Positions 16,554 through 60,065 of a DNA stretch of 64,000 bases are shown here, piece by piece. This stretch comes from Patescibacteria group bacterium (GTDB lineage Bacteria > Patescibacteriota > Microgenomatia > UBA8517). The stretch covers positions 20,549 to 84,548 of the forward strand of contig DATDRP010000003.1 of NCBI GenBank assembly GCA_035291665.1, in the 5' to 3' direction. Under the pieces are notes generated by a model. That model made no database searches, was not told where the DNA came from, and saw only the letters and a list, made by a program, of their open reading frames with translations. Numbering within the stretch: the stretch's first letter is position 1; each line of letters begins with the position of its first letter. The translations under genes and the position numbers were made by a program.

Positions 16554-16786
16554 GATTCATTTTAACAAACAACAAGCTACTAATTAACTGCTAATTTAAA
16601 ATCACTAATTAATACAAATTCCTATTCGTGATAATTCGCGTTTCCCATTAGTGAGTAATTCGTGATTATAATACAATTGCAATTCGTGAACCTAATATCT
16701 TAATATCGAATCACCTAGTATCTTTTTTGGTAATTCGTAGCCAACTCTTGCAATTTATATCTTTTTGGCCTATATAATGACTAAAT

Positions 16787-17799: not shown

Positions 17800-17968
17800 A
17801 AGAAGAGAAAAGATATTGATTGTAAGCGGTAGGAAGTGAGATGTGAGAAGTGAGTTGTGAGTGATGGGTAATTAGTCTTAAGTATCCAGTTGTACGCGGT
17901 AAGTTGTAGGTTGTAGGAAGTGAGTTGTAGTAAATTAGTAGTAATTCGTGATAATAATTCGTGACTAA
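17800..17968. repeat. Composite intergenic repeat island A (GT-rich C-depleted module + AATTCGTGA array)
   Basis: 'ggtaggaagtgagatgtgagaagtgagttgtgagtgatgggtaattag...gtaagttgtaggttgtaggaagtgagttgtag...gtaattcgtgataataattcgtgactaattagtgattcac'. Almost no C on the + strand. Confidence 0.7.
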
Positions 17969-18703
17969 TTAGTGATTCACGCCTAAAACTATTCTTGCAT
18001 CGATATTCTCCAAGTCATCCGTTTCATAATCGTTTATTTTTAATAATTTTTTCGTATCACTTATGACAACATCCAGTTGATCTTCTTTATCTTTCGATAT
18101 AACCAATAAGTTCTCATCATTTCTTGTTGTATTCCCCGTTTCCACGTTCGTATATCCCAACTCTTCGAAATCGCTTGCAATGCTGCCGGCCAAACCGGAG
18201 GTCCCTGATCCGTTCAGAATTTCCAGACGAACTTCAGATCTTTCCAGATCTGTGTTTGCGGGTGACTGGTCAACGGTTGAATCGGATTCAGCAACAATTT
18301 CAACTGCTTTCGTTTCGATTGTATCTGCCTGCTCACCCATATCAACATCAACTTTACTACCTTCTTCAGACGGATTTATCTTTGTTCGTGAGAATAATGC
18401 TAACGATGTTGCCGAAATAATAATAATCATACTAATTAAAGAAAGAATAAATATTTTTTTATTACTTTTTTCCAAAGGAATTTCTTCCTCTACGTCCGAA
18501 TATCTCATTTCATCAGCAGTTGAGACAAAACCCGGTAATTCCTGATTTTGCGGTGAAGGTTTATCTGATGCGAGATGCCTGGACGCGGATTTTGTTACAC
18601 CGGACTCATTTTCTTCCTTGACGGTCATCGATTCGGGAACATATGAACCGGATTTTGTTTTAATAAATTTCTTCTTGGCCATAAAACTTGCTTCAAAACT
18701 CAC
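17969..18703 (-). CDS. LytR_C (LytR/CpsA/Psr C-terminal) domain membrane protein
   Basis: Single TM (IFILSLISMIIIISATSLALF). C-terminal 'VRLEILNGSGTSGLAGSIASDFEELGYTNVETGN...NLLVISKD' matches the LytR_C pattern (VxVLNGSGxxGLAxxxaxxLxxxGFxV). Confidence 0.55.
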   Translation of the reverse strand: MSFEASFMAKKKFIKTKSGSYVPESMTVKEENESGVTKSASRHLASDKPSPQNQELPGFVSTADEMRYSDVEEEIPLEKSNKKIFILSLISMIIIISATSLALFSRTKINPSEEGSKVDVDMGEQADTIETKAVEIVAESDSTVDQSPANTDLERSEVRLEILNGSGTSGLAGSIASDFEELGYTNVETGNTTRNDENLLVISKDKEDQLDVVISDTKKLLKINDYETDDLENIDARIVLGVNH

Positions 18704-20579: not shown

Positions 20580-20611
20580 ACCACGAATTGGCTACAAATT
20601 TTTATAACAGA

Positions 20612-20720
20612 TTTCAAGAAAACCACCGAGTCGGACTCGGTGGATGAATTGAATTCTGATATGTCATCCTCCGTTAAAGGAAACCCCCGAGTCGGACTCG
20701 GGGGAGGATGTCATGATATT
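20612..20720 (-). ncRNA. Candidate structured small RNA / RNA element, copy 1 (minus strand), ending in an intrinsic terminator
   Basis: Outer stem ATGACATCCTCC...GGAGGATGTCAT (20661-20672 / 20704-20715) encloses the hairpin CCCCCGAGTC-G-GACTCGGGGG. The 3' hairpin CCACCGAGTC-C-GACTCGGTGG (20623-20643) is followed on the minus strand by TTTTCTTGAA. Second copy at 58480-58598 has compensatory stem changes. Confidence 0.5.
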
Positions 20721-20791: not shown

Positions 20792-21199
20792 ATGCCTAAA
20801 GTACTTCTAATTGAAGATGATCCATTGGTTGTAAGGATGTATCAGAAGATACTCACTTTTGAGGGTTTCCAAGTAGAAAGCGCGCCCGATGGAAGAGAGG
20901 GTGTCATGAAAGCAAAAGAAGTGAAACCCGATCTTATTTTTTGCGATGTGATGATGCCCAAAATGAACGGCATTGAAGTCTTGGAGCTACTCAAATCAGA
21001 TGCCGAGACAAAAGAAATTCCAGTTATAATGCTTACCAATTTATCCGGAACTCACGATGCAGAATTGGCGCTTCAGAAAGGTGCGTTTGCCTATATGGTA
21101 AAAAGCGAATACCGTCCGAAAGAAGTTGCGGCCAAAGCAAAAGAACTTATTGCGGGTTTAAAACTTACTCCGAGTGCACCCCAGGTATCGGGAGAATAA
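20792..21199 (+). CDS. Stand-alone response-regulator receiver (CheY-like REC) protein
   Basis: 135 aa. 'KVLLIEDDPLV...DLIFCDVMMPKMNGIEVL...IPVIMLTNLSG...AFAYMVKS' has the phospho-acceptor Asp and conserved Lys. No output domain. Confidence 0.8.
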   Translation: MPKVLLIEDDPLVVRMYQKILTFEGFQVESAPDGREGVMKAKEVKPDLIFCDVMMPKMNGIEVLELLKSDAETKEIPVIMLTNLSGTHDAELALQKGAFAYMVKSEYRPKEVAAKAKELIAGLKLTPSAPQVSGE

Positions 21200-21379
21200 A
21201 ACACTGTAACCAAGCAACCGAATTTCCAATTACGTAATTGATCTAATTACTAAATAATTACCAATAACCAAGCATCAAATTACAAATAATAATTAATTTA
21301 CAAATATTAATCAGGTATTAATTGTTAATTTTCTCAATACAGATAGTTTTTTTATTGAAATTTAGTGATTGTAAATTTG

Positions 21380-21583
21380 TTTGGAAATTGGAATTTGGTA
21401 ATTGGATATTTAGGTATTAGGTTGTAGGAAATGGGAAATGAGTAGTGACTAGTGGGAAGTGGGAAATGGAGATAAGCAAGTAGGTTGTAGGAAATTAGTA
21501 GCAATTCGTAGCTAATTGGAAGTATTTCGTGAACTTAATATCTTAATATCGAAGCACATAATATCTAACTGATTCGTGTTTAA
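21380..21583. repeat. Composite repeat island B (TAATTG/GGAAATTGG module, GT-rich module, AATTCGTA array, 33-nt 3' motif)
   Basis: 'ggaaattggaatttggtaattggatat' is shared with 14255-14285. 'ggttgtaggaaatgggaaatgagtagtgactagtgggaagtgggaaatgg'. 'cttaatatcttaatatcgaagcacataatatct' at 21534-21566. Confidence 0.7.
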
Positions 21584-21991
21584 CTAATTCTTCGTCGCTG
21601 CTTTGGGTATTTCCTCGCGCGTATAACCGGCAAGTATTTCTTTGATTTGGGCTACGATTTCCTTCGGTTTGTTTTGTGATTTCACAATATATTTAACAGC
21701 TCCCAAATCAAGTGCTGTGTCAACATCTTTATCCCCCGAGAGGTTGGTAAGAACAACTACAGGTATATTTTTGAGGTCGGGGTTGTTTTTGATTATTCGA
21801 AGGACATCAATACCGCTCATTTTTGGCATCATGATATCAAGAAGTATCATTATTGGTTTGAAACTCTTCAACTTTTCAATTCCTTCTTCACCGTTTCTGG
21901 CCATCTCAACATCAAACCCTTCAAACTGGAAAACAGTCTGATACATTCGGGATACAAGGGGGTCGTCTTCAACAATTAAAACTTTAGACAT
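21584..21991 (-). CDS. Stand-alone response-regulator receiver (REC) protein
   Basis: 135 aa. 'KVLIVEDDPLV...ILLDIMMPKMSGIDVL...IPVVVLTNLSGDKD...KYIVKS'. Confidence 0.8.
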   Translation of the reverse strand: MSKVLIVEDDPLVSRMYQTVFQFEGFDVEMARNGEEGIEKLKSFKPIMILLDIMMPKMSGIDVLRIIKNNPDLKNIPVVVLTNLSGDKDVDTALDLGAVKYIVKSQNKPKEIVAQIKEILAGYTREEIPKAATKN

Positions 21992-22100
21992 GGTTCACTA
22001 ATTTTATACTAATTTTCACTAATTATATTCCATAAAAAACTCGTGATCAATCAATTCGCGTTTTTAATTCGCAATCAATTCGCGATTTAATAATTCGTAG

Positions 22101-24251
22101 CTAATTCGCAGCTCTAGCCAGAGGCAGACTCACCTTAAAAACCGATCCTTTGCCTTCAACCGACTCAAAACCAATTTCCCCTTTCATCTTCTCCACCAAC
22201 ATTTTTGTTATAAAAAGTCCCAAACCGGTTCCTTCAACATCTTCCGTACCTTCGGTTTTTGCCCGAAAGAATTTGCTAAAAACTTTTTTGTGGTCTTTTA
22301 GCGGTATTCCGTATCCCGTATCGGAAATTTCCAAAATAACGTGTTTCCCGGAAACGGCACTCTTTACAACAACCCTTCCTGCTGGTTTATTATATTTAAT
22401 CGCGTTAGAGAGAAGATTTTCCAAAACATCCCTGAGCTTTTGCTCATCTGCTTCGACAATAGCGGATGCAATTTCATAATCCTCATCCAAGATCACTCTT
22501 TTTTCCTGGGCAATTGAGGCAACCTGTGAGACCACGCTTTTTACTGTTGCCATAAAATCCACCTTTGTAAGTTCAAGTTCTATTGTGCCTGATTCAGTTC
22601 TTGCTATTTCCAAAAGATCATCCACAAGATGGTTTAACCTCTGATTGGCTTTCTCGATGGCATCAAAATTCTCCAATGTATCTTTGTCCATCTTTATTTT
22701 CTCGTCTTTTATAAGACTGACAAAACCATTAATTACCGTAACCGGTGTCCGCAGTTCGTGAGTTGCGATAAAGACAAACTCGTCTCTGAGTCGTATAACT
22801 TCCTGTGCTTTTTCGAGTTCGCGCTTTTGCATTTTGCGTAATTCCAGAGTTCGTTCTTCAACTTTTTGCTCAAGTGTGTGGGAAAACTCCTGTATCTTTT
22901 TAAAAGCTTGAGCGTTGGAAAGAGCGACTGCCAACTCAGTTGAAAGAATTTCCAATACTCCCAAATCCTTATCAAAATAAATATCACCGGATTCTTTTTC
23001 TCCCAGAAGTAAATATCCGACAGTTCTTTCGTGAGTAGAGAGTGGCACAAATACCGACACAACGTACTTTCGCATAATTTTTTTAAGTCTCCCTTCCTCC
23101 ATTTCTTCGAAAATTTGCGACCTGCCGCTGGCTGCAAGGTCTTTAAGCTCCGGAAAAGTCGGAAATGAATAATTTGTACTTCTATCACCAAAGACGTCTT
23201 CGATCTTTCGTGCTCCCAGAACGAATATAGCAGCTTTTGAAAAACGCAAGTTTTCCTTGAGAACTGAAAACATGCTTGCGGTCAGATCCTCAAGATCCAA
23301 AGTTGAAGCTAATATCCGGGAAATTTTTTTTAACAACTCATTGGAATGAAAATGTCCTTTGTAAAAAATATTATCTGTTAGGTCTTCGAAAAGCCTCAAA
23401 AGCGGTTGGAAAGAGTATGCGATTATTAAAGCTAATATTGTTGAAGATACAATATTGGAAGTTGACGTTCTTACATTCGTAATATAAGAAGTAATCAGAA
23501 AAAATCCTCCAGCGTAAAGTAAACCCAATGTAATTGCGAGCAATATATATGTTATAGACCGGGCAACTACCAAGCGAATATCCATAAGTCTATGTTTTAG
23601 TATTGCGTACGTAATAATCAAAGCCATTGCGACATTAACAAAAGGTCCGATATAAATAAGTCTGTAATTACCCAATTGAGGCAGGATTACATTCGGTACA
23701 ATGCCAATAACCATAGGGAGCATGCTTGCAAGTAATACATATCTAATTTGGGATCGAATATTACCTTTTAATCTCATCATACCTCTAATAAGAATTACCA
23801 AAGCTGTGTTATAAATAATCCCCAGGTAAATAGCCCAAATAATATAAACCGGACCTAGAATTACAGAATTACCTTGGTCGTCAAGAATAATCCGTTCAAT
23901 CCAGAGATTGGTATTAAAAAGTGGTATAAAAAAAATAAAAGGGACTGTTACCAGCAATATTGTCCAAATTTTTTCAGGAAATTTGCCGTTAACCAAGGTA
24001 TAGGAGAAATAAAAAATCGCAGAAGGAACTATGCTTCCGGAAACATAAATCATCCTACTCCAAAATAAAGCAGGCTCTTGAGTCTTAGATAATCTGAAAA
24101 ATGCAATTGCAAATGCCCAAACAATAACATTTAGGATAAAAACCGAAAATGATAGATTTAATGGATTTTTGGGATTCTTAACAAGAACTACTAAAAAAAC
24201 TGGTATTGATAAAATTCCAGACAATATGAGCGCCAAATCTATGATATTCAT
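22101..24251 (-). CDS. Sensor histidine kinase with N-terminal multi-TM sensor region
   Basis: N-terminal half has ~8-10 TM helices. H-box 'FVFIATHELRTPVTVINGF'. HATPase_c motifs 'ISDTGYGIP...GTGLGLFITKMLVEKMKGEIGFES'. Confidence 0.8.
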   Translation of the reverse strand: MNIIDLALILSGILSIPVFLVVLVKNPKNPLNLSFSVFILNVIVWAFAIAFFRLSKTQEPALFWSRMIYVSGSIVPSAIFYFSYTLVNGKFPEKIWTILLVTVPFIFFIPLFNTNLWIERIILDDQGNSVILGPVYIIWAIYLGIIYNTALVILIRGMMRLKGNIRSQIRYVLLASMLPMVIGIVPNVILPQLGNYRLIYIGPFVNVAMALIITYAILKHRLMDIRLVVARSITYILLAITLGLLYAGGFFLITSYITNVRTSTSNIVSSTILALIIAYSFQPLLRLFEDLTDNIFYKGHFHSNELLKKISRILASTLDLEDLTASMFSVLKENLRFSKAAIFVLGARKIEDVFGDRSTNYSFPTFPELKDLAASGRSQIFEEMEEGRLKKIMRKYVVSVFVPLSTHERTVGYLLLGEKESGDIYFDKDLGVLEILSTELAVALSNAQAFKKIQEFSHTLEQKVEERTLELRKMQKRELEKAQEVIRLRDEFVFIATHELRTPVTVINGFVSLIKDEKIKMDKDTLENFDAIEKANQRLNHLVDDLLEIARTESGTIELELTKVDFMATVKSVVSQVASIAQEKRVILDEDYEIASAIVEADEQKLRDVLENLLSNAIKYNKPAGRVVVKSAVSGKHVILEISDTGYGIPLKDHKKVFSKFFRAKTEGTEDVEGTGLGLFITKMLVEKMKGEIGFESVEGKGSVFKVSLPLARAAN

Positions 24252-24260
24252 CTGAAGTAA

Positions 24261-25187
24261 CTATTTGGGAACAATTAAAAATCCGGCTGTTCTACCGGTG
24301 CCCTTGCCAAAAACTATCTTTTCCTGGACATTCCCTACTTGGCTAAGATAATAATTCATTTCCTCGGGAGTTCTCAACGGGGCGTATTTCTTCAAAATTG
24401 CAGAAAAGCTACGCATAAAATCTCTGCCCTCCGAATTCGTTTGCGCCATGGCTATTACTCCAGCTAGTCTTTCCTGTTCCTCCCGCGGTTTTTTCTTTCC
24501 TATTTCAAGCATCTCATCGAGCATCTCATCAGGGTCAAAATGTTTAGGATCCAAGCTTGTTACAAAAAACTTGTCGCCACCAATTCTGAAAAAGTTATCC
24601 ACTACTCCTACCATTGTATCTGCAGGAAAATAAGATGCAGAAAAAACCGATACTCCTAACCATTTCCCGGAATCTTTTACAGGAAGGTGATCTGGCATAC
24701 CTCTCGAATAATCATGCAATAAAAACTGAGCCTCTGAAAGCCTTTTTGAAGCAACCATGGAATCGAGTTTAGGTTGACTGGCATCTCTTGCGAGTTGCGA
24801 TGAATCTATTGCCAGGTAAGATACCGCGCCATTGGTTCTTTCGGCAATATGTGTGGCAAGCGGACAAAGTCCGGCTCCAAAATCAAATACCCTGTCACCC
24901 GGCATTGGAGAAATAGCTCTGACCACATCACGTCGAAATTCGGTTAAATTCTCAACTAAAGGTTCATAAATTTTCATTCGTCCTGGTATATGTTTTTGCC
25001 AAATACCAGCCATTTCTTGTCCATAAGACTTCATGAAAGATATTTTTGTATCAGTAGGCAGTAGATGAACAATTGTCATCATTTCGCCTGGAGTAAGGTC
25101 TTCACCAACTTTGTAGCGATTGTGGATCATTTGTACTGATCGAGGATCTATTAATGTTGGTTTATTAATGCCAGTTTCGGGCGTCAT
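24261..25187 (-). CDS. Putative class I SAM-dependent methyltransferase-like protein (co-oriented with the RR-HK genes)
   Basis: 308 aa. 'RVFDFGAGLCPLATHIAE' resembles methyltransferase motif I (hh-D-h-G-x-G-x-G). The rest is unassigned, so this is a weak call. Confidence 0.3.
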   Translation of the reverse strand: MTPETGINKPTLIDPRSVQMIHNRYKVGEDLTPGEMMTIVHLLPTDTKISFMKSYGQEMAGIWQKHIPGRMKIYEPLVENLTEFRRDVVRAISPMPGDRVFDFGAGLCPLATHIAERTNGAVSYLAIDSSQLARDASQPKLDSMVASKRLSEAQFLLHDYSRGMPDHLPVKDSGKWLGVSVFSASYFPADTMVGVVDNFFRIGGDKFFVTSLDPKHFDPDEMLDEMLEIGKKKPREEQERLAGVIAMAQTNSEGRDFMRSFSAILKKYAPLRTPEEMNYYLSQVGNVQEKIVFGKGTGRTAGFLIVPK

Positions 25188-25236
25188 ATTATTTACTATA
25201 TATGCTTATATTGATCATTGCATCATCTGATATTAT

Positions 25237-25614
25237 TTAAGTTTTTTTACTATTCAGTAGTTCCTCAATTTTCCGTCCTAATTCTTTTGGTTCGGCATCC
25301 TTTTTCACCCAATAATCAACGGCTCCTTTTTCCTTTGCCAACTCTGAATCATATTTACCTGATAAATTGGTAAGTATTACAACGGGAATATTTTTTGTAT
25401 CCGGATCTTCCTTAAGCTTCTCCAATACCTCCATCCCGTCGGGTTCGGGCATCATGATATCAAGAAGGATGAGATCGGGAAGTATTTTTTTAGCTTTATT
25501 CAAACCTTCAAGTCCGCCAATTGCTACTTCAGAATCAATATCACTGAAAGAGAGGGATTTCTGATACATCCTCGCAACCAGCGGTTCGTCTTCAACAATT
25601 AAAACCTTTGTCAT
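25237..25614 (-). CDS. Stand-alone response-regulator receiver (REC) protein
   Basis: 125 aa. 'KVLIVEDEPLV...LILLDIMMPEPDGMEVL...IPVVILTNLSG...DYWVKK'. Confidence 0.8.
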   Translation of the reverse strand: MTKVLIVEDEPLVARMYQKSLSFSDIDSEVAIGGLEGLNKAKKILPDLILLDIMMPEPDGMEVLEKLKEDPDTKNIPVVILTNLSGKYDSELAKEKGAVDYWVKKDAEPKELGRKIEELLNSKKT

Positions 25615-25840
25615 AGATATAAATAACTTTTAATTGAACAATTAATAAGGACCTTCATAAATTTTCCTCCCTATTAATTTTAGGAAAATTTCCAAAGAAC
25701 CTTGCATTTTTGCTTTGCAAAAGTGTTAATACTTTCGTCATGTTTCAGAATAACTATTAATTGTGACATTATTAAAGTCACATTAGGACGCTTCAATTAC
25801 TTTAATTTAAAATTAGCTTAAAGTTCAATAGGATGTTTTT

Positions 25841-26218
25841 TTACAGCGACGAAGGTTGGAGAATTTTATTTATCTTTTTACCCATCTCTTTCGGTTTAAT
25901 ATCTTTTTTAACCCAATAATCAATAGCGCCTTTTTCCTTTGCAAGATCCATATCATTTTCCCCGGACAAATTGGTAAGCATGACAATCGGGATATTTTGT
26001 ATTTCAGGATCTGTCTTAATTTTTTCGAGTGCTTCGATCCCATTCATTCCCGGCATCATAATATCCATCAAAACAATATCAGGCTTCCAATCACGCGTTT
26101 TGGCAACTCCATTTTCACCACCCATCGCAAGTTCTACTTCAAAGTTATCGAACGCCAATGCTTTCTCGTACATTCTTGCCACCAGCGGCTCATCTTCAAC
26201 TATTAAAACCCTTGTCAT
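25841..26218 (-). CDS. Stand-alone response-regulator receiver (REC) protein
   Basis: 125 aa. 'RVLIVEDEPLV...IVLMDIMMPGMNGIEAL...IPIVMLTNLSG...DYWVKK'. Confidence 0.8.
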   Translation of the reverse strand: MTRVLIVEDEPLVARMYEKALAFDNFEVELAMGGENGVAKTRDWKPDIVLMDIMMPGMNGIEALEKIKTDPEIQNIPIVMLTNLSGENDMDLAKEKGAIDYWVKKDIKPKEMGKKINKILQPSSL

Positions 26219-26354
26219 ATTGCTACAAATATACTACGTATTCAAAACTAATTAATCTACAAATTATTATAGTACATGTGTTTGAAAGATATCCACTCAA
26301 ATTATTCTTGTATTCGAAGCTTAATTTGAATAAAATTCGTAGCTAATTTGTAGC

Positions 26355-28136
26355 CTAACCTTTTGGTAAAACCAGTTCAAATTCCGAACCTTTATCGACT
26401 TTTGATTTAACAAGATAAACTTTCCCATTCATGGCATCCGCTAACATCCTCGATATATAAAGTCCAAGCCCAACTCCTTGGGTTGAATCGTGTTTATAAA
26501 AATCCTCCCCCACCTGTTGAAATTTCTTAAACAGCATTTTTTGATCTTTTTCACTCATACCTCTCCCCGTATCGGAAACATTAATTTTTACACTATCTTT
26601 TTCTTCCAGCACTTTAATCGTGATTCTACCATTGTCAGTGAATTTATTTGAATTACTGACAAGATTATAAATAACTTGATTTACTTTTGTCCGGTCTGCA
26701 TAAACCTTAATATCTTTATCCTCATGGTATTCAATTAAATTTCCTTTCTTTGTTGCCGGTGATGCGAGCTCTCCCAAGACGGCGTTTACTTCATCAGAGA
26801 CCGAAAAGCGTTCGGTTTTAAACTGCACTCTATTATGCTCAAGTGACGATACTTCCAGAAGTTCATCAACAATTGCAATAAGCCTCGCGGCTGAGGTGTC
26901 AATGTCCTGCACCATTTCAGCAAGGTCTTTCTCGGTAACTTTCGCCGGATATAAATTTTTAATAAGATCAACATTTCCTTTTATGGCTACCAGTGGAGTG
27001 CGAAGTTCGTGGGATGCCAGGGCAATAAATTCGTCTTTGCTTCTTTCCAATAGCCTTTCGTCGGTGACATCCTCAAGAAGGATTACTGTTCCGATTGTGT
27101 CAGTTCCCCGTTCGACATTCGCCGCAATTAAACTGAAGATGCGGTTGATATATGTCACATCTTTGGTATAAACCAATTCTTCACTCTTATCTAAACTTTT
27201 TTGAACTTTCTCGACATCGAAATTCTTCGTCAGAATCTGCTTTATGGTCGATAAGTTCTCGGTAGAAAATAATTTTTTAACTTTATTATTTATCCTGCTA
27301 ATGGCTCCGTCTTTGTCCAATAAGATATAACCAACCGGCATACTATCAATAGATGTGACAAGTGTCGCTTCTATTGACTTTCCATAGTCCTCAGCTAAAA
27401 CAAAGGCATTGTGGGTTGACAACAAAAGTCCGGTAAGCGCAAGTATATAGCTTACGAGTCTGATAAGAACTGACATATAAAACATTAAATCACCCGGATT
27501 TGCAGACGCAAGGTAAAAAGGTATTTGGGAAAGAAGTAGAGCAATAAGCGCGGTTATAAAAACCTGGTCAAAAAATTTCTTCTTCCAAGTTCCTTTTGTA
27601 AGATAACCAAATATTGTAACCAGAAGAAGTGCACTCGAAACGGCTATCGCTATCAGTGCGGGAATCTTTACAAATAAAAATGAAATTGTGAGAAAAATAG
27701 AAAAAAACATTGAAAGCAAAAATATCTGATTTTTCAATTTACCCTTGTGTCCGACATTTCGAATTGATTCATTAGTCCAAACAAGATAACTCAGAAAAAA
27801 TATAAGGGATAATAAAAGTGTTGCGGGGTCTGATACTTTCCCCGAAAGAAGAAGTGTTGGCTTAACCAAGTAGAAATAAAAATCCAAAACCGAAGCACCT
27901 AAAAAACCAAAACCGATGAATGCATACTTTGATTTGTTTCTTGTGTCAAATTTAATCAGAGATACTGCACATGCAACAATCGAAACAATTACAATAAAAG
28001 AGCCTATTATCGGGAAAAATGATACTCCCAGAGTGCCTTTGATACCTCGGGTCAAAAGATACAGCGAAACAAAATAAAAAATTGTAATTAGGTGAAAAAC
28101 CAGTCTGTTGAGGTGTTTTTGGGCAAGGTCTTTCAT
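26355..28136 (-). CDS. Sensor histidine kinase with N-terminal multi-TM region and cytoplasmic PAS-like segment
   Basis: H-box 'FIALASHELRTPLVAIKGN'. HATPase_c 'VSDTGRGMSEKDQKMLFKKFQQVG...GVGLGLYISRMLADAMNGKVYLVKS'. N-terminal 260 aa hydrophobic. Confidence 0.8.
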   Translation of the reverse strand: MKDLAQKHLNRLVFHLITIFYFVSLYLLTRGIKGTLGVSFFPIIGSFIVIVSIVACAVSLIKFDTRNKSKYAFIGFGFLGASVLDFYFYLVKPTLLLSGKVSDPATLLLSLIFFLSYLVWTNESIRNVGHKGKLKNQIFLLSMFFSIFLTISFLFVKIPALIAIAVSSALLLVTIFGYLTKGTWKKKFFDQVFITALIALLLSQIPFYLASANPGDLMFYMSVLIRLVSYILALTGLLLSTHNAFVLAEDYGKSIEATLVTSIDSMPVGYILLDKDGAISRINNKVKKLFSTENLSTIKQILTKNFDVEKVQKSLDKSEELVYTKDVTYINRIFSLIAANVERGTDTIGTVILLEDVTDERLLERSKDEFIALASHELRTPLVAIKGNVDLIKNLYPAKVTEKDLAEMVQDIDTSAARLIAIVDELLEVSSLEHNRVQFKTERFSVSDEVNAVLGELASPATKKGNLIEYHEDKDIKVYADRTKVNQVIYNLVSNSNKFTDNGRITIKVLEEKDSVKINVSDTGRGMSEKDQKMLFKKFQQVGEDFYKHDSTQGVGLGLYISRMLADAMNGKVYLVKSKVDKGSEFELVLPKG

Positions 28137-28204
28137 TATTTATATGTAAGAAGATTCCCTGCGAAAGAGGAATCTTTGTCGAAAGTGTTCAAGAATCCTT
28201 CAAA

Positions 28205-28594
28205 TCAGCCGGATTTCGACGCCGAACCTAAATATTTTTCAACCAAATCGCCTAATTTTGCTATATCGGTTTTACTTTTAATAAGATAACCGGCGGCACC
28301 TTTTTCCATTGCAAGTTCCGCATCATTTTTCCCGGAAAGATTCGTAAGCATTACGATCGGAATTTTTGCCGTTTTGGGATTGCTTTTTAATTTATCCAAG
28401 ACTTCAATTCCGTCGGGTTCCGGCATCATAATATCAAGGAAAATAAAATCAGGATTTTCTGATTCTGCTTTTTCAAGTCCTTCTTTCCCGCCGATTGCCA
28501 GAACGGTATCATACTTTGCGAACCTGAGGGCTTTTTCATACATTCTTGCCACCAGCTCTTCATCTTCGACTAATAGTACTTTCACCATAATCAC
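28205..28594 (-). CDS. Stand-alone response-regulator receiver (REC) protein
   Basis: 129 aa. 'KVLLVEDEELV...FIFLDIMMPEPDGIEVL...IPIVMLTNLSGKND...GYLIKS'. Confidence 0.8.
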   Translation of the reverse strand: MIMVKVLLVEDEELVARMYEKALRFAKYDTVLAIGGKEGLEKAESENPDFIFLDIMMPEPDGIEVLDKLKSNPKTAKIPIVMLTNLSGKNDAELAMEKGAAGYLIKSKTDIAKLGDLVEKYLGSASKSG

Positions 28595-28654
28595 TAATTA
28601 TACACGAATTAAAATCACTAATTTACTACTAATTACATGCTAATATTAACCTGA

Positions 28655-29056
28655 ATGGCCAAATTAATCTTCCCTAAATTAAGTTATACCATAATGGGAA
28701 TCCTTTTTCAGATTCATGCAAAACTCGGGAATCAATATCAAGAAAAATACTACCAACGAGCATTAGAATCGGCCTTAAAAGAACATGATATAAAATATAA
28801 AAAAGAACTCAAATCGGACTTATTTTATAACGAAGTAAAGATAGGGAAATATTTTCTCGACTTTTTGATTGAAGATAAAATTATATTAGAGTTAAAGACT
28901 AAACCCTTTTTTACTGGTCAGGATATAAGACAGGTTTTAGCTTACTTAAAAGCCAACAATAAACGTTTAGGTATTCTGGCAAATTTTAGAACTGGAAGTC
29001 TCACATATAAAAGAATTATTAATAACCACTACACCCCATTCATAAATAATTCGTGA
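28655..29056 (+). CDS. GxxExxY family protein (PD-(D/E)XK-like fold)
   Basis: 133 aa. 'HAKLGNQYQEKYYQRALESAL...DFLIEDKIILELKT' matches the GxxExxY signature and the downstream D...E.K motif. Gene is flanked by AATTCGTGA-type repeats. Confidence 0.7.
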   Translation: MAKLIFPKLSYTIMGILFQIHAKLGNQYQEKYYQRALESALKEHDIKYKKELKSDLFYNEVKIGKYFLDFLIEDKIILELKTKPFFTGQDIRQVLAYLKANNKRLGILANFRTGSLTYKRIINNHYTPFINNS

Positions 29057-29105
29057 TTCCTATTCGTGAGCAATTCGTGATTTAGTGTATTAAATTCGTA
29101 AGTAA

Positions 29106-31457
29106 TTAGTGATCAGCCAACGGCAGTGTCAGTGTGAATGTGCTTCCTTTCCCAAGATCGCTTTCCGTAAGAACCAAATCCCCATTCATGATACGTGCAA
29201 ATTCACGGCTGATATATAATCCCAAACCCGTACCTCCGGCTTGTCTTTGTGTGATGTCATCCATAACTTGCTGGAAACGCTGGAATAAAAGATTCTGCTT
29301 GTGTTTTGCAATCCCCATTCCCGTGTCGGAAACATCCACCCGCAGCATTTTTCCATCAATTGTATTTCTGACAGTAATACCTCCTTCACCTGTAAATTTA
29401 ATTGAGTTTCCGATGAGATTAATAAGTATTTCTTTGAACAAGCCTTCATCCGCAGCAATAAATTGGTTTTTGGGATCTTCAATATTTTCCGCTTTAATAT
29501 ACAGTCCTTTATTTTTAGCCAAAGATTCCAGTTCATGAATAATCTGTTTTGTAATAAAATTGGCGTCTACTTTTTCCATTTTAAATTTAAGCCGCGCCTG
29601 ATCAAGTCGGGACACATTCAAAAAATCAGATACCAGTTTGGTAAGTCTCTCGGCAGAAGTTTGTGTATCCTGAAGAAGCTGTAAATCCACTTCGCTGAGA
29701 TGGCTTTTTCCGTATCCCGCTTGGATCGTATCAAGGTTTCCGGAAATAATTGTTAATGGTGTGCGGAGTTCGTGCGATGCAATAGAAAAAAAGTCATCTT
29801 TCTGCTGTTGAAGGCTCACTTCCTCAGTAATGTCATGAATAATTCTTACAACACCTGCAAAGGATCCTTCAACCGTGACAGGTGAAGCGTTGATGCTTGC
29901 ATCAATCAATCTTCCCGATTTGCTTTGAATTTTTAATTTGGTTTCTCTGTTTTTTGCCGTAACTGCAGCGGTGTCGCTAAGATGGGCAGGGGAAATCGGT
30001 TTACTTTCTTTATCAAATGCTTTGATCGTGTCGGAATAATCTCTTCCGATAAATTCATCCGACTTGTACCCAAATGTATTCTCAAATGAAGGGTTGACAT
30101 AAGTTACCATCCCTTTACTGTCGGTTAATATTACCGCTTCTCCGGTATTTTCAAGGATGGCCTGGCTTTTTACCTGCTCTTCTTTGAGGGCATGAGAACC
30201 GGATCGAAGTTTTGCCTGAATTATGATTTCTGCTTCCTTTTCCTCTGAAGCATCACGGAATATTTTGATAGCGCCTTTTACCTCGCCATCGATGATAAGC
30301 GGTGTTGTCATTGAAACTATCGGGAATTTCCTGCCCGAGGATTCGACATAGTAATAATGATTGGCATCAAGATCGGTAATAATCGTTACCGCTTTTTTAA
30401 GTACCTGTACCGAAACTCTTTTTTCTAAAGGAATTTCCACTGTTCCTTCATATGCTTTTGCAAGTTCGCTCCATGATTTTCCGATAATTTCGCCTTCGGT
30501 AAGACCTAGTATTTTCGAGGCTGCTGGATTTACTAGATTTACTTTATAATCGGGCCCTATTACCAAAAGTCCTTCACCCATTGAGGAAATTATCAAATTT
30601 ATTCTATCCCTTTCCTCTTTCAGATTTTGTTCAAGGTTTTTTTCATCTTCAAGAACTTTCAGTAGCGTATCCCGTCTCTCCTCCAACTCCTTTTTTGCGT
30701 TTTCAAGCTCCTCTTTTTGTCTTACCAGTTCATGCATTACATTTTTCTGATCAGTAATATCTCTTTGAATCGCAAGAAAGCCTATCAGTTCACCTTTTTC
30801 ATTTGCGATCGGATTGACTGAATTGCTGATGATAATTAAAGTTCCGTCTTTCTTTTTATTAATCATCTCTATATTGACGGGCTTTTTTGATGTAATAGTG
30901 TCCCAAAACCGGGCATAAAATTCAGATGTTTGTTTTCCGGATTTTAATAGTCTGGGGGTTTTTCCTTTCCACTCATCTTGTGTATACCCATAAGTGTTGG
31001 TAAATGACGGATTAACATACTGTAAAATTCCATTTTCATCGGTGATAAAAATAACATCATTGGAGCGTTCAATCCCAAGATGGAGGGCTAACGTATGTTC
31101 CTTCAACTGGATTATCTTTTTTGTTGAATCAGTAAAATAACCAATAACGTAGGAAACCAGAATCATTCCTATTCCGCCGACGATTGGCTGATAATAGATG
31201 TCATTAAACGTTGCTCCGGAAGTAAGATAGACAAAGATAAAGTTAATAACAAAAGCGAGAGATCCGCTAACAACACCTGTTTTCATTCCAAAGACAGCGG
31301 GAAATGTCAGTATGGGTACAGCAATAGCAGCCTGAGCAATATTTCCGACAATAGGAAGTCCGATAACAAGGCCTGCAATATAAAATATTACCGAAGATCC
31401 GGCAATCAGAACTTTCCGCAAGTTTTTATTATTAAGAGTTTGGGCAGGTTCGGGCAT
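29106..31457 (-). CDS. Multi-PAS sensor histidine kinase with N-terminal membrane domain
   Basis: 783 aa. N-terminal TM helices. At least two PAS-like modules (NDVIFITDENGILQYVNPSFTNTYGYTQDEW; GEAVILTDSKGMVTYVNPSFENTFGYKSDEF). Coiled-coil, H-box 'FFSIASHELRTPLTIISGN', HATPase_c 'VSDTGMGIAKHKQNLLFQRFQQV...GTGLGLYISREFARIMNG'. Confidence 0.8.
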   Translation of the reverse strand: MPEPAQTLNNKNLRKVLIAGSSVIFYIAGLVIGLPIVGNIAQAAIAVPILTFPAVFGMKTGVVSGSLAFVINFIFVYLTSGATFNDIYYQPIVGGIGMILVSYVIGYFTDSTKKIIQLKEHTLALHLGIERSNDVIFITDENGILQYVNPSFTNTYGYTQDEWKGKTPRLLKSGKQTSEFYARFWDTITSKKPVNIEMINKKKDGTLIIISNSVNPIANEKGELIGFLAIQRDITDQKNVMHELVRQKEELENAKKELEERRDTLLKVLEDEKNLEQNLKEERDRINLIISSMGEGLLVIGPDYKVNLVNPAASKILGLTEGEIIGKSWSELAKAYEGTVEIPLEKRVSVQVLKKAVTIITDLDANHYYYVESSGRKFPIVSMTTPLIIDGEVKGAIKIFRDASEEKEAEIIIQAKLRSGSHALKEEQVKSQAILENTGEAVILTDSKGMVTYVNPSFENTFGYKSDEFIGRDYSDTIKAFDKESKPISPAHLSDTAAVTAKNRETKLKIQSKSGRLIDASINASPVTVEGSFAGVVRIIHDITEEVSLQQQKDDFFSIASHELRTPLTIISGNLDTIQAGYGKSHLSEVDLQLLQDTQTSAERLTKLVSDFLNVSRLDQARLKFKMEKVDANFITKQIIHELESLAKNKGLYIKAENIEDPKNQFIAADEGLFKEILINLIGNSIKFTGEGGITVRNTIDGKMLRVDVSDTGMGIAKHKQNLLFQRFQQVMDDITQRQAGGTGLGLYISREFARIMNGDLVLTESDLGKGSTFTLTLPLADH

Positions 31458-31571
31458 ACATTCATATTAACAAACAATACCTCACTAATTAATTGCTAAT
31501 TCCAATTGGAGATTAATTCGTGTTTCTAATTTGTGAGTAATTAGTGATCAAAATTCGCTTGCAATTCGTGA

Positions 31572-33821
31572 TTAAATTTCTTCCATAATTCCCTTAATCT
31601 CTTCCTCATTCAAAACCCCCGTTACAACTTTGACTACACTTCCCCGGCGGTCCAAAAACAAGTGGGTCGGGAGTGAGTTGATATTCAATTCTTCCATTAG
31701 CTCACCATCTGCATCGACGACAATATCGTATTCATATTGCCCGCGGCGAGAAAAAATTAAAACTCTGGATAGAGTTTCCTGACTTGCGATAACTGCACCT
31801 TTTATTGTCCGGTCCTTTAGTAACCTATCCAATACTGACACCTGTTCAATAGCCAGCGGGTTCCAGCTTCCGATAAAGCTAATTACCGCATTGTCTCCTC
31901 TTAAATCCCTGATATCGAATACTTTGTCGTTTATTGTGGGAAGATTAAAATTATCAAGAATTTTCCCCATCAGAGGATTTGAAATATTACCAATCTCAGC
32001 TTGTTTTATCCTGATAAGAGCTTTTTCGGTTAAATATTTTACAAAACCGAACCTGAAAAAACCGAAATTCAACCCGCTTGCTTTGGAAAGTTCAAAATCG
32101 GAATTCAAGACCGTTGATCTTTCTAAAGAAAATATTTGGCTCGTCAGAATGTCATAGCCTGATGCTTTGACTGTTAAATAATATGTTCCGGGCGGAAGTA
32201 AATATTGGTAAACACCATCTTTTATGTCTTGCGGATTGTCCTGTCCGAAAGTCTTCCCATCCCAAACATTCCAGATTTTTGTTAACGGATCCTGGACATA
32301 GACCGTAACTTTTCCTTTTGAAATAGATTTACCTGATTCCTTATCGCTTATTTCACCGGGTCCGACAACCAAAATTTTGTTTAATGTTTTTGTTGTAATG
32401 TTACCTGCTCCATCAACAGCTTTTGCCGAAAGATCATACAATCCGACTTCAGGAAAATTAATAAATCCCGACCATAGCCCCGTATCAACCGATTGATCGA
32501 GTGGAAATGTCAGATCACCTGCATAAAGCGTCACTTCGGATGGACCGCCAACGGTAGAAAGGGTTACCTTGTGGTCAATTCCCGTCATCGTGATAATCAC
32601 ACCTTCTTCGTTCGGGATAAGGGGTTGCGGGCCTACCGATATCAAATTTCCCCCAACTCGCGGAGGAAGCCTGTCGATGACAAGAATTATTGTCTCAGAT
32701 TTTCCTGTATTTCCCCGTTCATCAAGAGCTCTTACAATAACCTCGTAATTTCCATCTTCAAAAACATAAGGCAGGAAATCAAAAGTTACTTCATCGGTCC
32801 CCAAGTTTTCAGTATTATCGGCTGGCAGCCAATTCTCCCCTCCGTCTGTTGAATATGAAACGCTTGCGACTTCTTCATTATCGGTTGCCGTTCCTTCAAT
32901 AACCGGAGGTTCGGTGTAACTTGATTCAATATCGGTCGTCAGGCTCACCCGGGGAGCAGTTCTATCAACCGGAATTGGCGTGGGGGTTGGAGTTGACGTA
33001 GTTGTAGTAGTGGTAGGAGTTGGGGTTGAAGTTGCTGTTGCGGACGTCGGAGCAGCAGTCGCTCCGGTTGCAGAAGTTGAAAACGTATATTCACTTGAAC
33101 AACCTTGATTACCAGAACCATCAGTCGAACACACGCGGTAATAATAAGGCGTACCGGCCGCTAAAGACTGGGTAATTGTTAAGGAATGAGAAGTAACCAT
33201 TTGTGAACCACTTGCCGAAAAAGGATATATTTGCTCCTCCGCATTAACGTCATACTGAACTACAGAACTTGCTGATTCATTAGTCGTCCAAGTAATAGTT
33301 GCGGAACCTGTTGTGATTGAACTCGCGGTGACATTTGTAATTGTTGGTGCTGTAACATCATTTTGGCCAGTGACCGTAAAAATCAAACTTCCAGTACAAC
33401 TTACCGGATTTGCTCCACCGCTATCATCGGAAACCTGAACAACCCAATCGCTGGAAGCACCTTCGATATCTCCAATGCTTAATGTTATAGTGGGGCTAAT
33501 CGAGGCTCCGGGAGCTAAGGAGGTCGATGCATAGCGAAACGTATATGAATCATTTGCTACATCTACATACCAGGAAGGATATATAGAATAACCTTGAAGA
33601 GTGGTTTCATTATGTGGCTTATATAATCTAATCCACAACACATTTGCAGACGGATCGCCATTTGTAACCGTGAATATATATGGAGACTGTACATTTGGTT
33701 GGTTATCTGTAGGTGTTGCGGTTGCAATACAAGATTCGATAGCTGCCTTTACGTTCACAGGAAAAATAATTTTAGCCAAAAAAACAAGGAATAATATAAC
33801 TAATAAAATAAATTTTCTCAC
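31572..33821 (-). CDS. Secreted FN3/Ig-like repeat surface protein with P/T-rich linker and C-terminal thioredoxin-like (TlpA/redoxin-like) fold lacking CxxC
   Basis: Signal peptide. 'TAPTITNVTASSITTGSATITWTTNESASSVVQYDV' is FN3-like. A (T/P)n linker. The C-terminal 'VFDIRDLRGDNAVISFIGSWNPLAIEQ...PTHLFLDRRGSVVKVVTGVLNEEEI' aligns to TlpA/ResA-type redoxins, but WCxxC is replaced by WNPLA. Confidence 0.5.
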   Translation of the reverse strand: MRKFILLVILFLVFLAKIIFPVNVKAAIESCIATATPTDNQPNVQSPYIFTVTNGDPSANVLWIRLYKPHNETTLQGYSIYPSWYVDVANDSYTFRYASTSLAPGASISPTITLSIGDIEGASSDWVVQVSDDSGGANPVSCTGSLIFTVTGQNDVTAPTITNVTASSITTGSATITWTTNESASSVVQYDVNAEEQIYPFSASGSQMVTSHSLTITQSLAAGTPYYYRVCSTDGSGNQGCSSEYTFSTSATGATAAPTSATATSTPTPTTTTTTSTPTPTPIPVDRTAPRVSLTTDIESSYTEPPVIEGTATDNEEVASVSYSTDGGENWLPADNTENLGTDEVTFDFLPYVFEDGNYEVIVRALDERGNTGKSETIILVIDRLPPRVGGNLISVGPQPLIPNEEGVIITMTGIDHKVTLSTVGGPSEVTLYAGDLTFPLDQSVDTGLWSGFINFPEVGLYDLSAKAVDGAGNITTKTLNKILVVGPGEISDKESGKSISKGKVTVYVQDPLTKIWNVWDGKTFGQDNPQDIKDGVYQYLLPPGTYYLTVKASGYDILTSQIFSLERSTVLNSDFELSKASGLNFGFFRFGFVKYLTEKALIRIKQAEIGNISNPLMGKILDNFNLPTINDKVFDIRDLRGDNAVISFIGSWNPLAIEQVSVLDRLLKDRTIKGAVIASQETLSRVLIFSRRGQYEYDIVVDADGELMEELNINSLPTHLFLDRRGSVVKVVTGVLNEEEIKGIMEEI

Positions 33822-48921: not shown

Positions 48922-48934
48922 TTTTGTAAATTAG

Positions 48935-49235
48935 AGATAAGAAAAAAAATGGGATGTGGGAAGTGGGTTCTAAGTAATAGGTTGTAAGCAGTAAGTTGTA
49001 GGAGGTAGGTTGTAGGAGATAGGTTATAGGAAAAGAGAAATGAGTTGTGGGAAGAGAAACTGGGAATGAGATGTGAGTTGTGAGTAGTGGGAAATACAGA
49101 TAAGAAATTAGGAATATAGGAATTAAGAAATTTAGAATAAAGAGAATAGAGAAATAGGAAAAATAATTGCGGAAGGGAGATTGATAATTGTAAAATAAAT
49201 CCTATATTAATGGTGTTGTGAAGACTAACGAAGTA
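48935..49235. repeat. Composite repeat island C (modules X and Y)
   Basis: Module X 'gggatgtgggaagtgggttctaagtaataggttgtaagcagtaagttgtagg' and module Y 'gtgggaaatacagataagaaattaggaatataggaattaagaaatttagaataaagagaatagag'. Only ~5 C in ~240 nt on the + strand. Confidence 0.75.
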
Positions 49236-49439: not shown

Positions 49440-49900
49440 ATTAATACTAAGATTCCCGAATGTCCAGTAGCAGTTTTACCCCATATTAGTAAAGGGTGAC
49501 AGAAAATTAGATTTAAGTTTAAGTTGTATGTTGTAGGTGATAGGAAGTGAGTAATGAGAAGTGAGATGTGAGAAATAAGAGTTAAGAGGTAGGTTGTAGG
49601 TGGTGGGATGTGGGATGTGAGTGGTGGGAAATACAAATAAGAATTTAGGAATACAGGAATTAAGAGAAAAGAAATGGGATGTTGGAAGTGGGTTTTAAGT
49701 AATAGGTTGTAAGTAGTAAGTTGTGGGAAAAAGGTTGTAGGTTATAGGTTATAGGAGCGAAGTTAGAAATATAGAAATTTAGTATTTTGTTTTAAGTTTT
49801 CAATTGAAGAACATTGGCCATTTAGCATTCGTATCTCGTCTCACGTATCACGTATTACATCGCTTGGTTTGAAAAGTACCGAACTAACAAGATCTCATTG
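49440..49900. repeat. Composite repeat island D (modules Y then X, then 'CGTATCTCGTCTCACGTATCACGTATTAC' module)
   Basis: Y: 'gtgggaaatacaaataagaatttaggaatacaggaattaagag'. X: 'gggatgttggaagtgggttttaagtaataggttgtaagtagtaagttgtggg'. These are the same modules as island C in swapped order. The tail module is shared with island F. Confidence 0.75.
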
Positions 49901-52509: not shown

Positions 52510-52564
52510 ACGGGTAAGATAGTTGCGCATATAATTAATATTGTCCTGTATAATCGCTACAAAA

Positions 52565-52730
52565 TATAATCTCTGATGTGAGAGTTGAGAGATGAGATGT
52601 GGGAAGTGAGAAGTGAGTTGTAAGCAGTAGGTTGTAGGTAATAGGTTGTGGGAGGTAGGAAATTGGTATATTCCTAATATCTTAATATCGAAGCACATAA
52701 TATCTCTCCTATTCGTGATCAGTTCGTGAT
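52565..52730. repeat. Composite repeat island E (GT-rich module + 33-nt 3' motif + TTCGTGAT pair)
   Basis: 'gatgtgagagttgagagatgagatgtgggaagtgagaagtgagttgtaagcagtaggttgtaggtaataggttgtgggaggtagg', then 'cctaatatcttaatatcgaagcacataatatct' (52673-52705), then 'attcgtgatcagttcgtgattc'. Confidence 0.75.
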
Positions 52731-58479: not shown

Positions 58480-58598
58480 TAATGACATCCTCCCCGCCTT
58501 AAAAGGCGGGGTTTCCCTAAGGAGGATGACATACCGTGCCCGCCGGCAGGCAGGTCAGAGTTCAATTCATCCACGCCCTAAAGGGTTAGGTTTTCTTG
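58480..58598 (+). ncRNA. Candidate structured small RNA / RNA element, copy 2 (plus strand), ending in an intrinsic terminator
   Basis: Outer stem ATGACATCCTCC (58482-58493) ... GGAGGATGACAT (58521-58532) encloses the hairpin CCCCGCC-TTAAAA-GGCGGGG. Shared single-stranded 'TCAGAGTTCAATTCATCCAC'. 3' hairpin CCTAA-AGGG-TTAGG followed by TTTTCTTGAA. Reverse-complement homolog of 20612-20720. Confidence 0.5.
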
Positions 58599-58858
58599 AA
58601 CGCTGTTATAATTAGATTGTAAATATAATTCTTATAATATAATACAAAATTAATATTAATATTTTAAATTTATCGTTCTTGAAAGTAAATTAATTATAAT
58701 TCTTGAATAGAATTTATATAACTACATAAAAATATACATTTCACTAACTACTATTATATATAACACTATATGTATTAATAGATCTCATAATAGCACTAAA
58801 TACCACTTTATAATTTTTACAACATCTGATATATATAGAGTTATAAAGAGGAATTAAT

Positions 58859-59889: not shown

Positions 59890-60065
59890 AAAGGGATATT
59901 ACGTGCTTCGATATTAAGATATTAGGACTATTTCAATTTTTAATTTCCCTCTTTCCACCACTCACATCTCACTTCCCATTACTCATTTCCAATTTCTTTT
60001 CTCTTTTCTCTTTATTCTAAATTACTTAATTCTTAAATTCCTGTATTCCTAAATTCTTATTTCTA
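59890..60065. repeat. Composite repeat island G (reverse orientation: 33-nt motif complement, then CT-rich complement of modules X/Y)
   Basis: 'gatattacgtgcttcgatattaagatattagg' (59895-59926) is the reverse complement of the 33-nt motif. '...ctctttattctaaattacttaattcttaaattcctgtattcctaaattcttatttc' is the reverse complement of module Y. Confidence 0.7.

Follow-up and report, generated by a model that had tools for sequence, protein, structure and literature searches.

What kind of sequence keeps its fold while its hairpins are rewritten from one copy to the next? The question is raised by a 64,000-nt stretch of DNA from a Patescibacteria group bacterium (GenBank assembly GCA_035291665.1, contig DATDRP010000003.1, positions 20,549 to 84,548; hereafter the window), in which two copies of a short structured sequence lie 38 kb apart in opposite orientations. 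An earlier note on this DNA took them for a structured RNA with its own terminator, read from the minus strand at copy 1. Our analysis points to another identity: copies 1 and 2 are very probably palindrome-associated transposable elements (PATEs), that is, non-autonomous miniature elements of the IS200/IS605 family (IS608/IS1341 type) in which a left and a right transposon end are fused. Elements of the IS608/IS1341 type normally carry tnpB. The functional strand is the one opposite to that read earlier; this top strand is the plus strand of the window for copy 1 and the minus strand for copy 2.

A covariance model, built from 14 members of the family described below, found only two full matches in the window, at 20603-20714 (+; copy 1, 101.3 bits) and 58482-58610 (-; copy 2, 104.6 bits). 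These are the two places, and the one architecture, that the earlier note had described: four conserved blocks and two GC-rich hairpins (A and B) of differing sequence are common to both copies. The window has exactly two occurrences of the 20-mer TCAGARTTCAATTCATCCAC, where 0.03 would be expected. Similarity between the copies breaks off sharply at both edges, and they are therefore not part of a longer duplication. GC skew across the window revealed no switch in replication direction that would explain their opposite orientations. The source is a Woesebacteria-like bacterium of the candidate phyla radiation, known from groundwater metagenomes of Rifle, and several contigs of the same species end inside or beside copies 1 and 2. 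A scan of the window with Rfam at gathering thresholds and with ARAGORN returned only a tRNA-Ala at 60071-60141, and a tRNA-like or other known RNA was rejected on that ground. We also rejected a small open reading frame (short frames begin at the ATG of the helix, but their length and frame vary between copies), a C/D-box-like kink-turn in GAUGA...CUGA (its flanking stem would need the 3' strand of hairpin A, which is already paired), and the idea that hairpin A resembles hairpin B in each copy, which holds for copy 1 alone.

Beyond the window, both copies belong to a dispersed family, for which we scanned species-representative genomes and then metagenomes with the 18-mer GGATGAATTGAAYTCTGA. 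The genome scan recovered at least seven near-identical copies in Woesebacteria GW2011_GWA1_39_21, one in each of two other Woesebacteria and a diverged relative in one Parcubacteria genome; about 12 further sites came from the metagenomes. Most 18-mer matches (about 49 of 58 in genomes and about 75 of 102 in metagenomes) lay in unrelated coding sequence, and two beside a terminator, in a phage (L015) and in Rhodospirillales (L056), had no other feature of the family and were treated as chance. Applied to the retrieved loci, the covariance model added diverged members that do not contain the exact 18-mer. The genome and metagenome scans together gave 25 unique combinations of flank and element with identical edges, and the family has at least 20 distinct insertion sites in Candidatus Woesebacteria.

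The family has a single plan (colons mark the edges of the element): on the left, (T)TAT:AACAG..TTCAAGAAAA-hairpin A-GGATGAATTGAAyTCTGA; then an optional insert; and on the right, TATGTCATCCTCC..GGAAA-hairpin B-AGGATGTCAT:. Directly before AACAG stands TTAT in about 19 of 21 copies, CTAT in one and TAAT in another. No direct repeats indicating a target-site duplication flank any of about 21 copies, and there are no terminal inverted repeats, the termini TTAT:AACAG... and ...GTCAT not being mutually inverted; every full copy has both subterminal hairpins, A and B, in paired form. Copies occur between rpsC and rplP, after rplP, around recG, by tyrS and by glycosyltransferase genes, and some join directly onto the final codons of a glycosyltransferase and an acetyltransferase. 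With respect to adjacent genes, about 11 copies point the same way, about 6 the opposite way, and the others are mixed or undetermined; no conserved promoter or other upstream sequence was found among the dispersed copies. Truncated, tandemly expanded and hairpin-inverted variants also occur. One orthologous site is empty: the rpsC-rplP spacer contains an element in L104 and none in L100, with flanks about 88% alike on both sides. Spacers between dCache and REC genes of relatives were rejected as empty sites for copy 1, the orthologous spacers being rearranged and thus unusable.

The observation that the hairpins differ in sequence yet stay paired extends to the whole family. Across 23 aligned members, 98.2% of cells pair, both sides have changed at 16 pairs (among them 7 of the 8 hairpin A pairs and 6 of the 7 hairpin B pairs), and none of 500 shuffles reached the observed pairing and covariation values; the alignment, however, was fitted to the covariance model, which favours pairing. 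At the left end, the 3' part of the copy 1 linker GGATGAATTGAATTCTGA pairs with CAGATTTCAA at 20608-20617, and the left long-range helix is compensatory in diverged members (TTCAA with TTGAA becoming TTCGA with TCGAA, or CTTCGCA with TGCGAAG). The outer helix on the right is present as the earlier note had proposed, with one constant mismatch, and shows a compensatory change from A-T to G-C in L048 and L181. A further small correction to that note is that hairpin A of copy 2 has decayed. The earlier note had tied its view of a selected structure to the existence of further homologues, and structure-preserving ones were recovered with both the covariance model and the 18-mer. Together, these results support a structure that is real and under selection. 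As to the strand, the loop types (GUGA, GUAA, UUCG, UUCA) and an excess of wobble pairs (7 G.U versus 3 A.C) weakly favour the top strand; we rejected the wobble asymmetry as a sole criterion because it is too weak.

What the structure belongs to is indicated by its right end. When the family consensus was compared by blastn with annotated collections, only the right ~45 nt matched, always on the top strand. The match covers the last tnpB codons and downstream sequence of an E. coli plasmid gene annotated 'RNA-guided endonuclease InsQ/TnpB family protein', lies at the extreme 3' end of transposase (tnpB) genes in a Salmonella phage and a Pseudomonas plasmid, and in the Sulfolobus virus SMV1 ends precisely where the annotation places the right boundary of 'transposon:IS element-IS200-605'. 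The Pseudomonas right end reads GGAAT-CCCCGCCC TTTA GGGCGGGG-AGGATGTCAA, with AGGATGTCAA also ending the tnpB element of the Salmonella phage; that of SMV1 reads GGAAC-CCTCGCCC TTTA GGGCGGGG-AGGAAGTCAG, with AGGAAGTCAG at the annotated IS200/605 boundary; that of the Woesebacteria family reads GGAAA-CCCCGCC TTTTAA GGCGGGG-AGGATGTCAT; and in a viral contig a TnpB-like open reading frame is followed by GAAA-CCCCTGAC TTTA GTCAGGGG-AGGATGTCAT. The left end of the Pseudomonas tnpB element, TTAT:CAAGCGGGTCGTAAAA-CCCCGCC GTTCA GGGCGGGG, has the same plan as the left half of the family: TTAT, 16 nt ending in AAAA, and a hairpin.

Directly 5' of hairpin B, the family sequence TTGGGGAAA aligns with the last tnpB codons (..GGGGGAAT..) of full-length relatives, which points to an origin by internal deletion of a tnpB-bearing element. 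Copy 2 carries a GC-rich insert where its two ends join, and unrelated inserts occur at the same point in L135, L141, L153, L116 and L098b. These inserts fit the point at which internal sequence of the insertion sequence (IS) would have been lost, the presumed deletion junction.

The geometry of the ends recalls that of IS608. In IS608, the left cleavage site (C_L, TTAC) lies outside the IS, 19 nt 5' of the left-end palindrome (IP_L), the right cleavage site (C_R) lies inside, 10 nt 3' of the right-end palindrome (IP_R), and a guide tetranucleotide directly 5' of each hairpin foot reads the cleavage site (PMC3201880); the left guide (G_L) AAAG goes with C_L TTAC and the right guide (G_R) GAAT with C_R TCAA (PMC5934647). 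In our family, TTAT is followed by 17 nt ending in AAAA and then by hairpin A, and GAAA is followed by hairpin B and 10 nt ending in TCAT; the TTAT of copy 1, 17 nt 5' of the hairpin A foot, parallels C_L of IS608. In all variants seen, the fourth positions of guide and cleavage site covary (AAAG/TTAC, AAAA/TTAT, GAAT/TCAA, GAAC/TCAG, GAAA/TCAT). Judged by their sequences, the family ends appear to conform to both the guide/cleavage pattern and the spacing of IS608.

A second comparison led to the same kind of element. At gathering thresholds, the Rfam check suggested in the earlier note gave nothing for either copy; a permissive scan matched copy 2 to HgcC (RF00062) at 58473-58595 (-) with 31.7 bits, on the strand opposite to the one read earlier. 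Every copy with the common hairpins matches HgcC on the top strand at 26-37 bits (best, 36.7). Family copies align with the full-length model on the same strand and present the same parts in the same order: a hairpin, GAUGA..GAAC, an optional middle hairpin, a CCCCGCC..GGCGGGG hairpin and an AGGAnGUCAn tail. The middle hairpin is mostly absent from the Woesebacteria family, and HgcC is known from archaea only. HgcC RNAs of Thermococcus kodakarensis begin inside IS605-type transposase genes, in the same sense (PMC4247193), and HgcC RNAs and a PATE-derived RNA of Halobacterium have a right-end-like tetraloop in common (PMC4615843). These likenesses suggest that Rfam HgcC is best understood as sequence derived from IS200/IS605 ends, with relatives in bacteria.

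By analogy with IS608, we infer the chemistry of transposition and the type of transposase as follows. From the left, each element would comprise, after the flanking TTAT, a 17-nt linker ending in AAAA, IP_L (hairpin A), the conserved linker and the junction, sometimes with a leftover insert; to the right would follow a ~12-nt remnant of the tnpB C-terminal coding region ending in GAAA, IP_R (hairpin B) and AGGATGTCAT ending in TCAT (Table 1). A Y1 HUH transposase (TnpA), supplied in trans, would bind both hairpins on the single-stranded top strand, and the guide tetranucleotides would pair with TTAT and TCAT and so locate the cleavage sites. A single-stranded circle would then be excised and re-inserted 3' of another TTAT, without target duplication. 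Because the transposase would read hairpin shape on single-stranded DNA, hairpin sequence would be free to drift and covary while the fold is kept, with linkers, guides and cleavage sites constrained in sequence, which would yield the pattern that the earlier note described.

Table 1. Coordinates of the two proposed miniature elements, their parts, and other repeats in the window
Feature	Position	Strand	Remark
Copy 1 TTAT, proposed target and left cleavage site C_L, outside the element	20602..20605	+	precedes AACAG in ~19/21 copies
Copy 1 complete miniature element (probable PATE), 109 nt	20606..20714	+	covariance-model match; edges common to at least 20 other copies
Copy 1 AAAA, proposed left guide G_L, 4 nt directly 5' of the hairpin foot	20619..20622	+	read from sequence
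Copy 1 hairpin A, left-end palindrome IP_L, CCACCGAGTCGGACTCGGTGG	20623..20643	+	nine perfect pairs
Copy 1 conserved linker GGATGAATTGAATTCTGA, 3' of IP_L	20642..20659	+	same in all main-family copies save one Y position
Copy 1 outer-helix 5' strand ATGTCATCCTCC	20661..20672	+	pairs with the final 12 nt of the element
Copy 1 GAAA, proposed right guide G_R	20680..20683	+	GAAT/TCAA, GAAC/TCAG and GAAA/TCAT combinations in relatives
Copy 1 hairpin B, right-end palindrome IP_R, CCCCCGAGTCGGACTCGGGGG	20684..20704	+	homologous in position and CCCC...GGGG form to the tnpB-element 3'-end hairpin
Copy 1 right terminus AGGATGTCAT, 10 nt, ending in proposed cleavage site C_R TCAT (20711-20714)	20705..20714	+	
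Copy 2 complete element (probable PATE), 126 nt	58482..58607	-	covariance-model match
Copy 2 right terminus	58482-58491	-	
Copy 2 IP_R	58492-58511	-	
Copy 2 proposed G_R	58512-58515	-	
Copy 2 outer-helix 5' strand	58521-58532	-	
Copy 2 GC-rich insert at the left-end/right-end junction	58533..58554	-	absent from copy 1
Copy 2 linker	58555-58572	-	
Copy 2 decayed IP_L	58571-58590	-	3 unpaired positions
Copy 2 proposed G_L	58591-58594	-	
Copy 2 TTAT, proposed target and left cleavage site	58608..58611	-	arrangement as in copy 1
Purine-rich arrays	17822-17935, 21411-21516, 48926-49045, 49520-49770, 52562-52681, 53324-53436		
Purine-rich arrays, complement	854-909, 1355-1410, 59945-60065, 63886-63930		
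AATTCGTGAT-type units	16632-16690, 17942-17976, 22052-22086, 29023-29113, 31490-31572		
30-nt box TAATATCTTAATATCGAAGCACATAATATC	16693, 21536, 52675, 59895 (inverted), 60210		

PATEs have been described in haloarchaea and other prokaryotes, where they are defined as non-coding elements of ~100-140 nt with fused ends, each bearing a subterminal hairpin (PMC4615843). The Woesebacteria family resembles them in these respects and in its lack of terminal inverted repeats and target duplications, its dispersed intergenic copies and a right end homologous to tnpB elements. It differs in having an extra 12-bp helix, formed by the right terminus with an internal segment, and an unusually conserved left-end linker, and no autonomous partner was found for it. 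PATE-type elements are a known kind and the host group is new: we found no description of them for the Woesebacteria of the candidate phyla radiation (CPR). With IS608 of Helicobacter pylori the family shares CCCC...GGGG hairpins, guides formed by the 4 nt 5' of the foot, left cleavage outside, ~17-19 nt 5' of the left hairpin, and right cleavage inside, 10 nt 3' of the right hairpin. It differs from IS608 in the motifs themselves (TTAT/AAAA and TCAT/GAAA, versus TTAC/AAAG and TCAA/GAAT) and in having neither tnpA nor tnpB. IS608 hairpins carry a bulged T, and those of the family are perfect, without a bulge.

Several observations weigh against an identification as PATEs. In tblastn searches with an IS608 TnpA and with the TnpA and TnpB of annotated elements, the window and all retrieved Woesebacteria loci yielded no homologue of tnpA or tnpB; tnpB adjoined none of about 25 copies; and no full-length element with the left-end 18-mer appeared in the genome or metagenome scans. 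The 12-bp outer helix that pairs the right terminus was not seen in the full-length relatives examined. The empty site in L100 reads ...ATTTGTCAT:TGG, not a clean ...TTAT:TAG, and is therefore possibly a near-precise deletion remnant rather than a virgin site. The pairing rule that we apply to guides and cleavage sites is borrowed from IS608 biochemistry. Lastly, the HgcC scores stay under the Rfam gathering score of 50 bits, and copy 1 (no match at E below 10) and L048 do not match HgcC.

A different source of mobility is offered by a protein of the same genomes. On this reading, which we consider unlikely, the elements are comparable to repetitive extragenic palindromes (REPs) and are kept and moved not by a classical TnpA but by a RAYT-like Y1 protein whose gene is single-copy, syntenic and widespread among Woesebacteria and other CPR bacteria. 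The protein has 227-229 aa, is encoded next to a TPR gene in several Woesebacteria, matches PF01797 (Y1_Tnp) at 8.6e-13 and REP_Tyr_transpos at 4.9e-12, below the cutoff of the latter, and has more than 7,800 relatives. Its HUH motif and catalytic tyrosine are intact in L181, L183 and L186, and in L181 the gene lies 3 kb from an element copy; in L183-L186, however, the 10 kb on either side of the gene are free of family copies. On both sides the RAYT-like genes have a palindrome that is not that of the family, TTGACA(A)GGG...CCC(T)TGTCAA. Like REP/BIME or REPIN sequences, the family is made of short palindromic units at scattered sites, on which a Y1 HUH enzyme presumably acts, in genomes that have RAYT-like genes; unlike them, it has direct hairpins in place of inverted doublets, has no GTAG-type head, and is not what flanks the RAYT-like genes. 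The window has one homologue of a Y1 transposase, a RAYT-like 223-aa protein at 49935-50606 (+; 31% identity with the RAYT-like proteins of other Woesebacteria, tblastn E 3.6e-23). This protein is probably inactive, because its first HUH histidine is replaced by Ser (LPKSIHILI) and its catalytic tyrosine by His (SKHIHRMP). We regard the elements of the source genome as probable relics, since the window holds only two diverged copies, one with a decayed hairpin, and its only Y1 homologue seems catalytically dead.

The RAYT-like genes have features of their own. Their palindrome, which is species-specific, occurs three times per gene, upstream, downstream and in frame inside it at a conserved position (L181 5300-6070; L186 9960-10720), so that gene and palindromes look like a REP/RAYT arrangement in CPR bacteria. 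Many contigs with such a gene are only 1-2 kb long, as if assembly breaks at the flanking repeats. The gene follows the TPR gene in relatives, but not in the window.

It is decidedly improbable that the elements are instead orphan guide RNAs, namely top-strand omega- or reRNA-like transcripts for a TnpB encoded elsewhere, with the 3' flank as guide and TTAT as target-adjacent motif, which would aid persistence after excision. The work of Karvelis and of Altae-Tran in 2021 is said to have traced TnpB guide RNAs to the right end of their elements. In tnpB elements, the homologue of our family's right end makes up the 3' end of the guide-RNA scaffold, the sub-threshold similarity to HgcC spans the whole model, and HgcC RNAs of Thermococcus are expressed both within tnpB genes and from transposase-less loci (PMC4247193). 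The right-end-proximal sequence in common with tnpB elements is only ~45 nt, however, against known scaffolds that span ~100-150 nt and extend into tnpB coding sequence; the left half derives from the left end, no promoter is conserved, and a search of the window and of ~0.5 Mb of Woesebacteria flanks gave no tnpB homologue.

Very unlikely, too, is the model from which the question arose, a stand-alone regulatory small RNA, transcribed from the minus strand at copy 1, with a 3' hairpin and U-tract as terminator and a Shine-Dalgarno-like GGAGG sequestered in a helix. Its appeal is understandable: folded on the proposed strand, copy 1 reaches -48 kcal/mol (z = -5.6 against shuffles) and copy 2 a z of -3.3; both copy 1 hairpins, A included, score as intrinsic terminators on that strand; a weak promoter-like match (9/12) lies upstream of copy 1; and the helices covary, although pairs form alike on either strand. 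In copy 2, however, no hairpin passes as a terminator, and the conserved block continues 13 nt past the U-tract to TTAT, a stretch that no terminator needs. On the bottom strand, the left-end hairpin, its AAAA guide and the linker take on the look of a terminator with TTTTCTTGAA after the hairpin, and the left-end linker reads there as the conserved 'single-stranded' TCAGA(A/G)TTCAATTCATCCAC. The copies are spread over at least 20 non-syntenic contexts and point either way with respect to adjacent genes; ahead of the supposed 5' end nothing is conserved, and there is no conserved promoter. The right third is homologous to the end of tnpB elements on the opposite strand; that strand also has the HgcC similarity, the loops of GNRA (GTGA, GTAA) and UUCG type, and 7 of the 10 departures of wobble type. 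The regulator genes beside both copies (REC and MerR), pointed out in the earlier note, are coincidental neighbours, given that other copies lie by ribosomal protein genes, recG, tyrS, a glmS ribozyme and glycosyltransferase genes. Where an element is antisense to genes (about 6 of 21 sites), its hairpins may act as terminators as a side effect.

That copies 1 and 2 are the ends of a 38-kb composite element or invertible segment is hardly credible: they are inverted and the gene order around both differs from that in relatives, but the family consists of solitary insertions in many unrelated contexts, ordinary core genes (two-component systems, Tat genes, surface proteins) lie between the copies, the interval is inverted in no related contig, and both hairpins are wholly different, so that the two are not a recent pair.

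The retrieved loci contained further arrangements of the probable PATEs and of related sequences. In Woesebacteria RIFCSPLOWO2_01_FULL_39_61, a copy (L036 7070-7403, -) stands directly 5' of a glmS ribozyme (54.8 bits, above its gathering score). A second, related miniature family ends in ...GAGAATA-hairpin-TAGTTTAT (L168 7385-7503, L153 1987-2085, L179 1980-2092) and also lies upstream of main-family copies in L042, L043 and L053; main-family copies directly follow ...TAGTTTAT, the terminal TTAT of the second family being their insertion site, and tandem pairs of elements result. L141 39-176 and L153 65-202 have the same left flank, different right flanks, and hairpin A loops inverted relative to each other (TGAA versus TTCA), which together suggest recombination between copies or hairpin flipping. 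The diverged relative in Parcubacteria RIFCSPLOWO2_01_FULL_48_18 (L025 and L094; about L025 5167-5184) keeps AAAAACC-hairpin-GGATGAATTGAATTCTGA with a different right half, and the whole unit lies within a 15-bp helix, GTTCACCCCGTTACAA with TTGTAACGGGGTTCAT.

Other repeats populate the window as well (Table 1). Purine-rich intergenic arrays with a 7/14-nt periodicity (GTGAGAA GTGAGTT GTAGGTT GTAGGAA...) are strand-biased relative to neighbouring genes. Spacers around the two-component gene cluster contain repeated units of 12/24 nt (AATTCGTGAT-type) and a 30-nt box, TAATATCTTAATATCGAAGCACATAATATC, both of which may be regulator binding sites. Single-domain response-regulator genes are densely packed in the region 20792-31457, together with HisKA and PAS kinases, and the REC paralogues there share DNA-level repeats (families D4, D9 and D11).

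Identification of the two copies as probable PATEs removes a false lead, in that a convincing, covarying 'small RNA' resolves into transposon ends, and it documents miniature elements of the IS200/IS605 type in Woesebacteria, a lineage of the CPR. Such repeats break metagenome assemblies, can add codons or stop codons to genes, and put terminator-like hairpins between genes. The covariation of guide and cleavage site over bacterial, archaeal and viral relatives amounts to a natural confirmation of the IS608 recognition rule. A broader reading, which we hold to be rather unlikely, is that Woesebacteria PATEs are kept or moved by the RAYT-like Y1 protein, or have been co-opted as top-strand guide-like RNAs or bottom-strand intrinsic terminators, or both. 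If true, they would form a domesticated system of transposon ends within an ultra-small genome, and the archaeal HgcC RNAs would have counterparts in bacteria.

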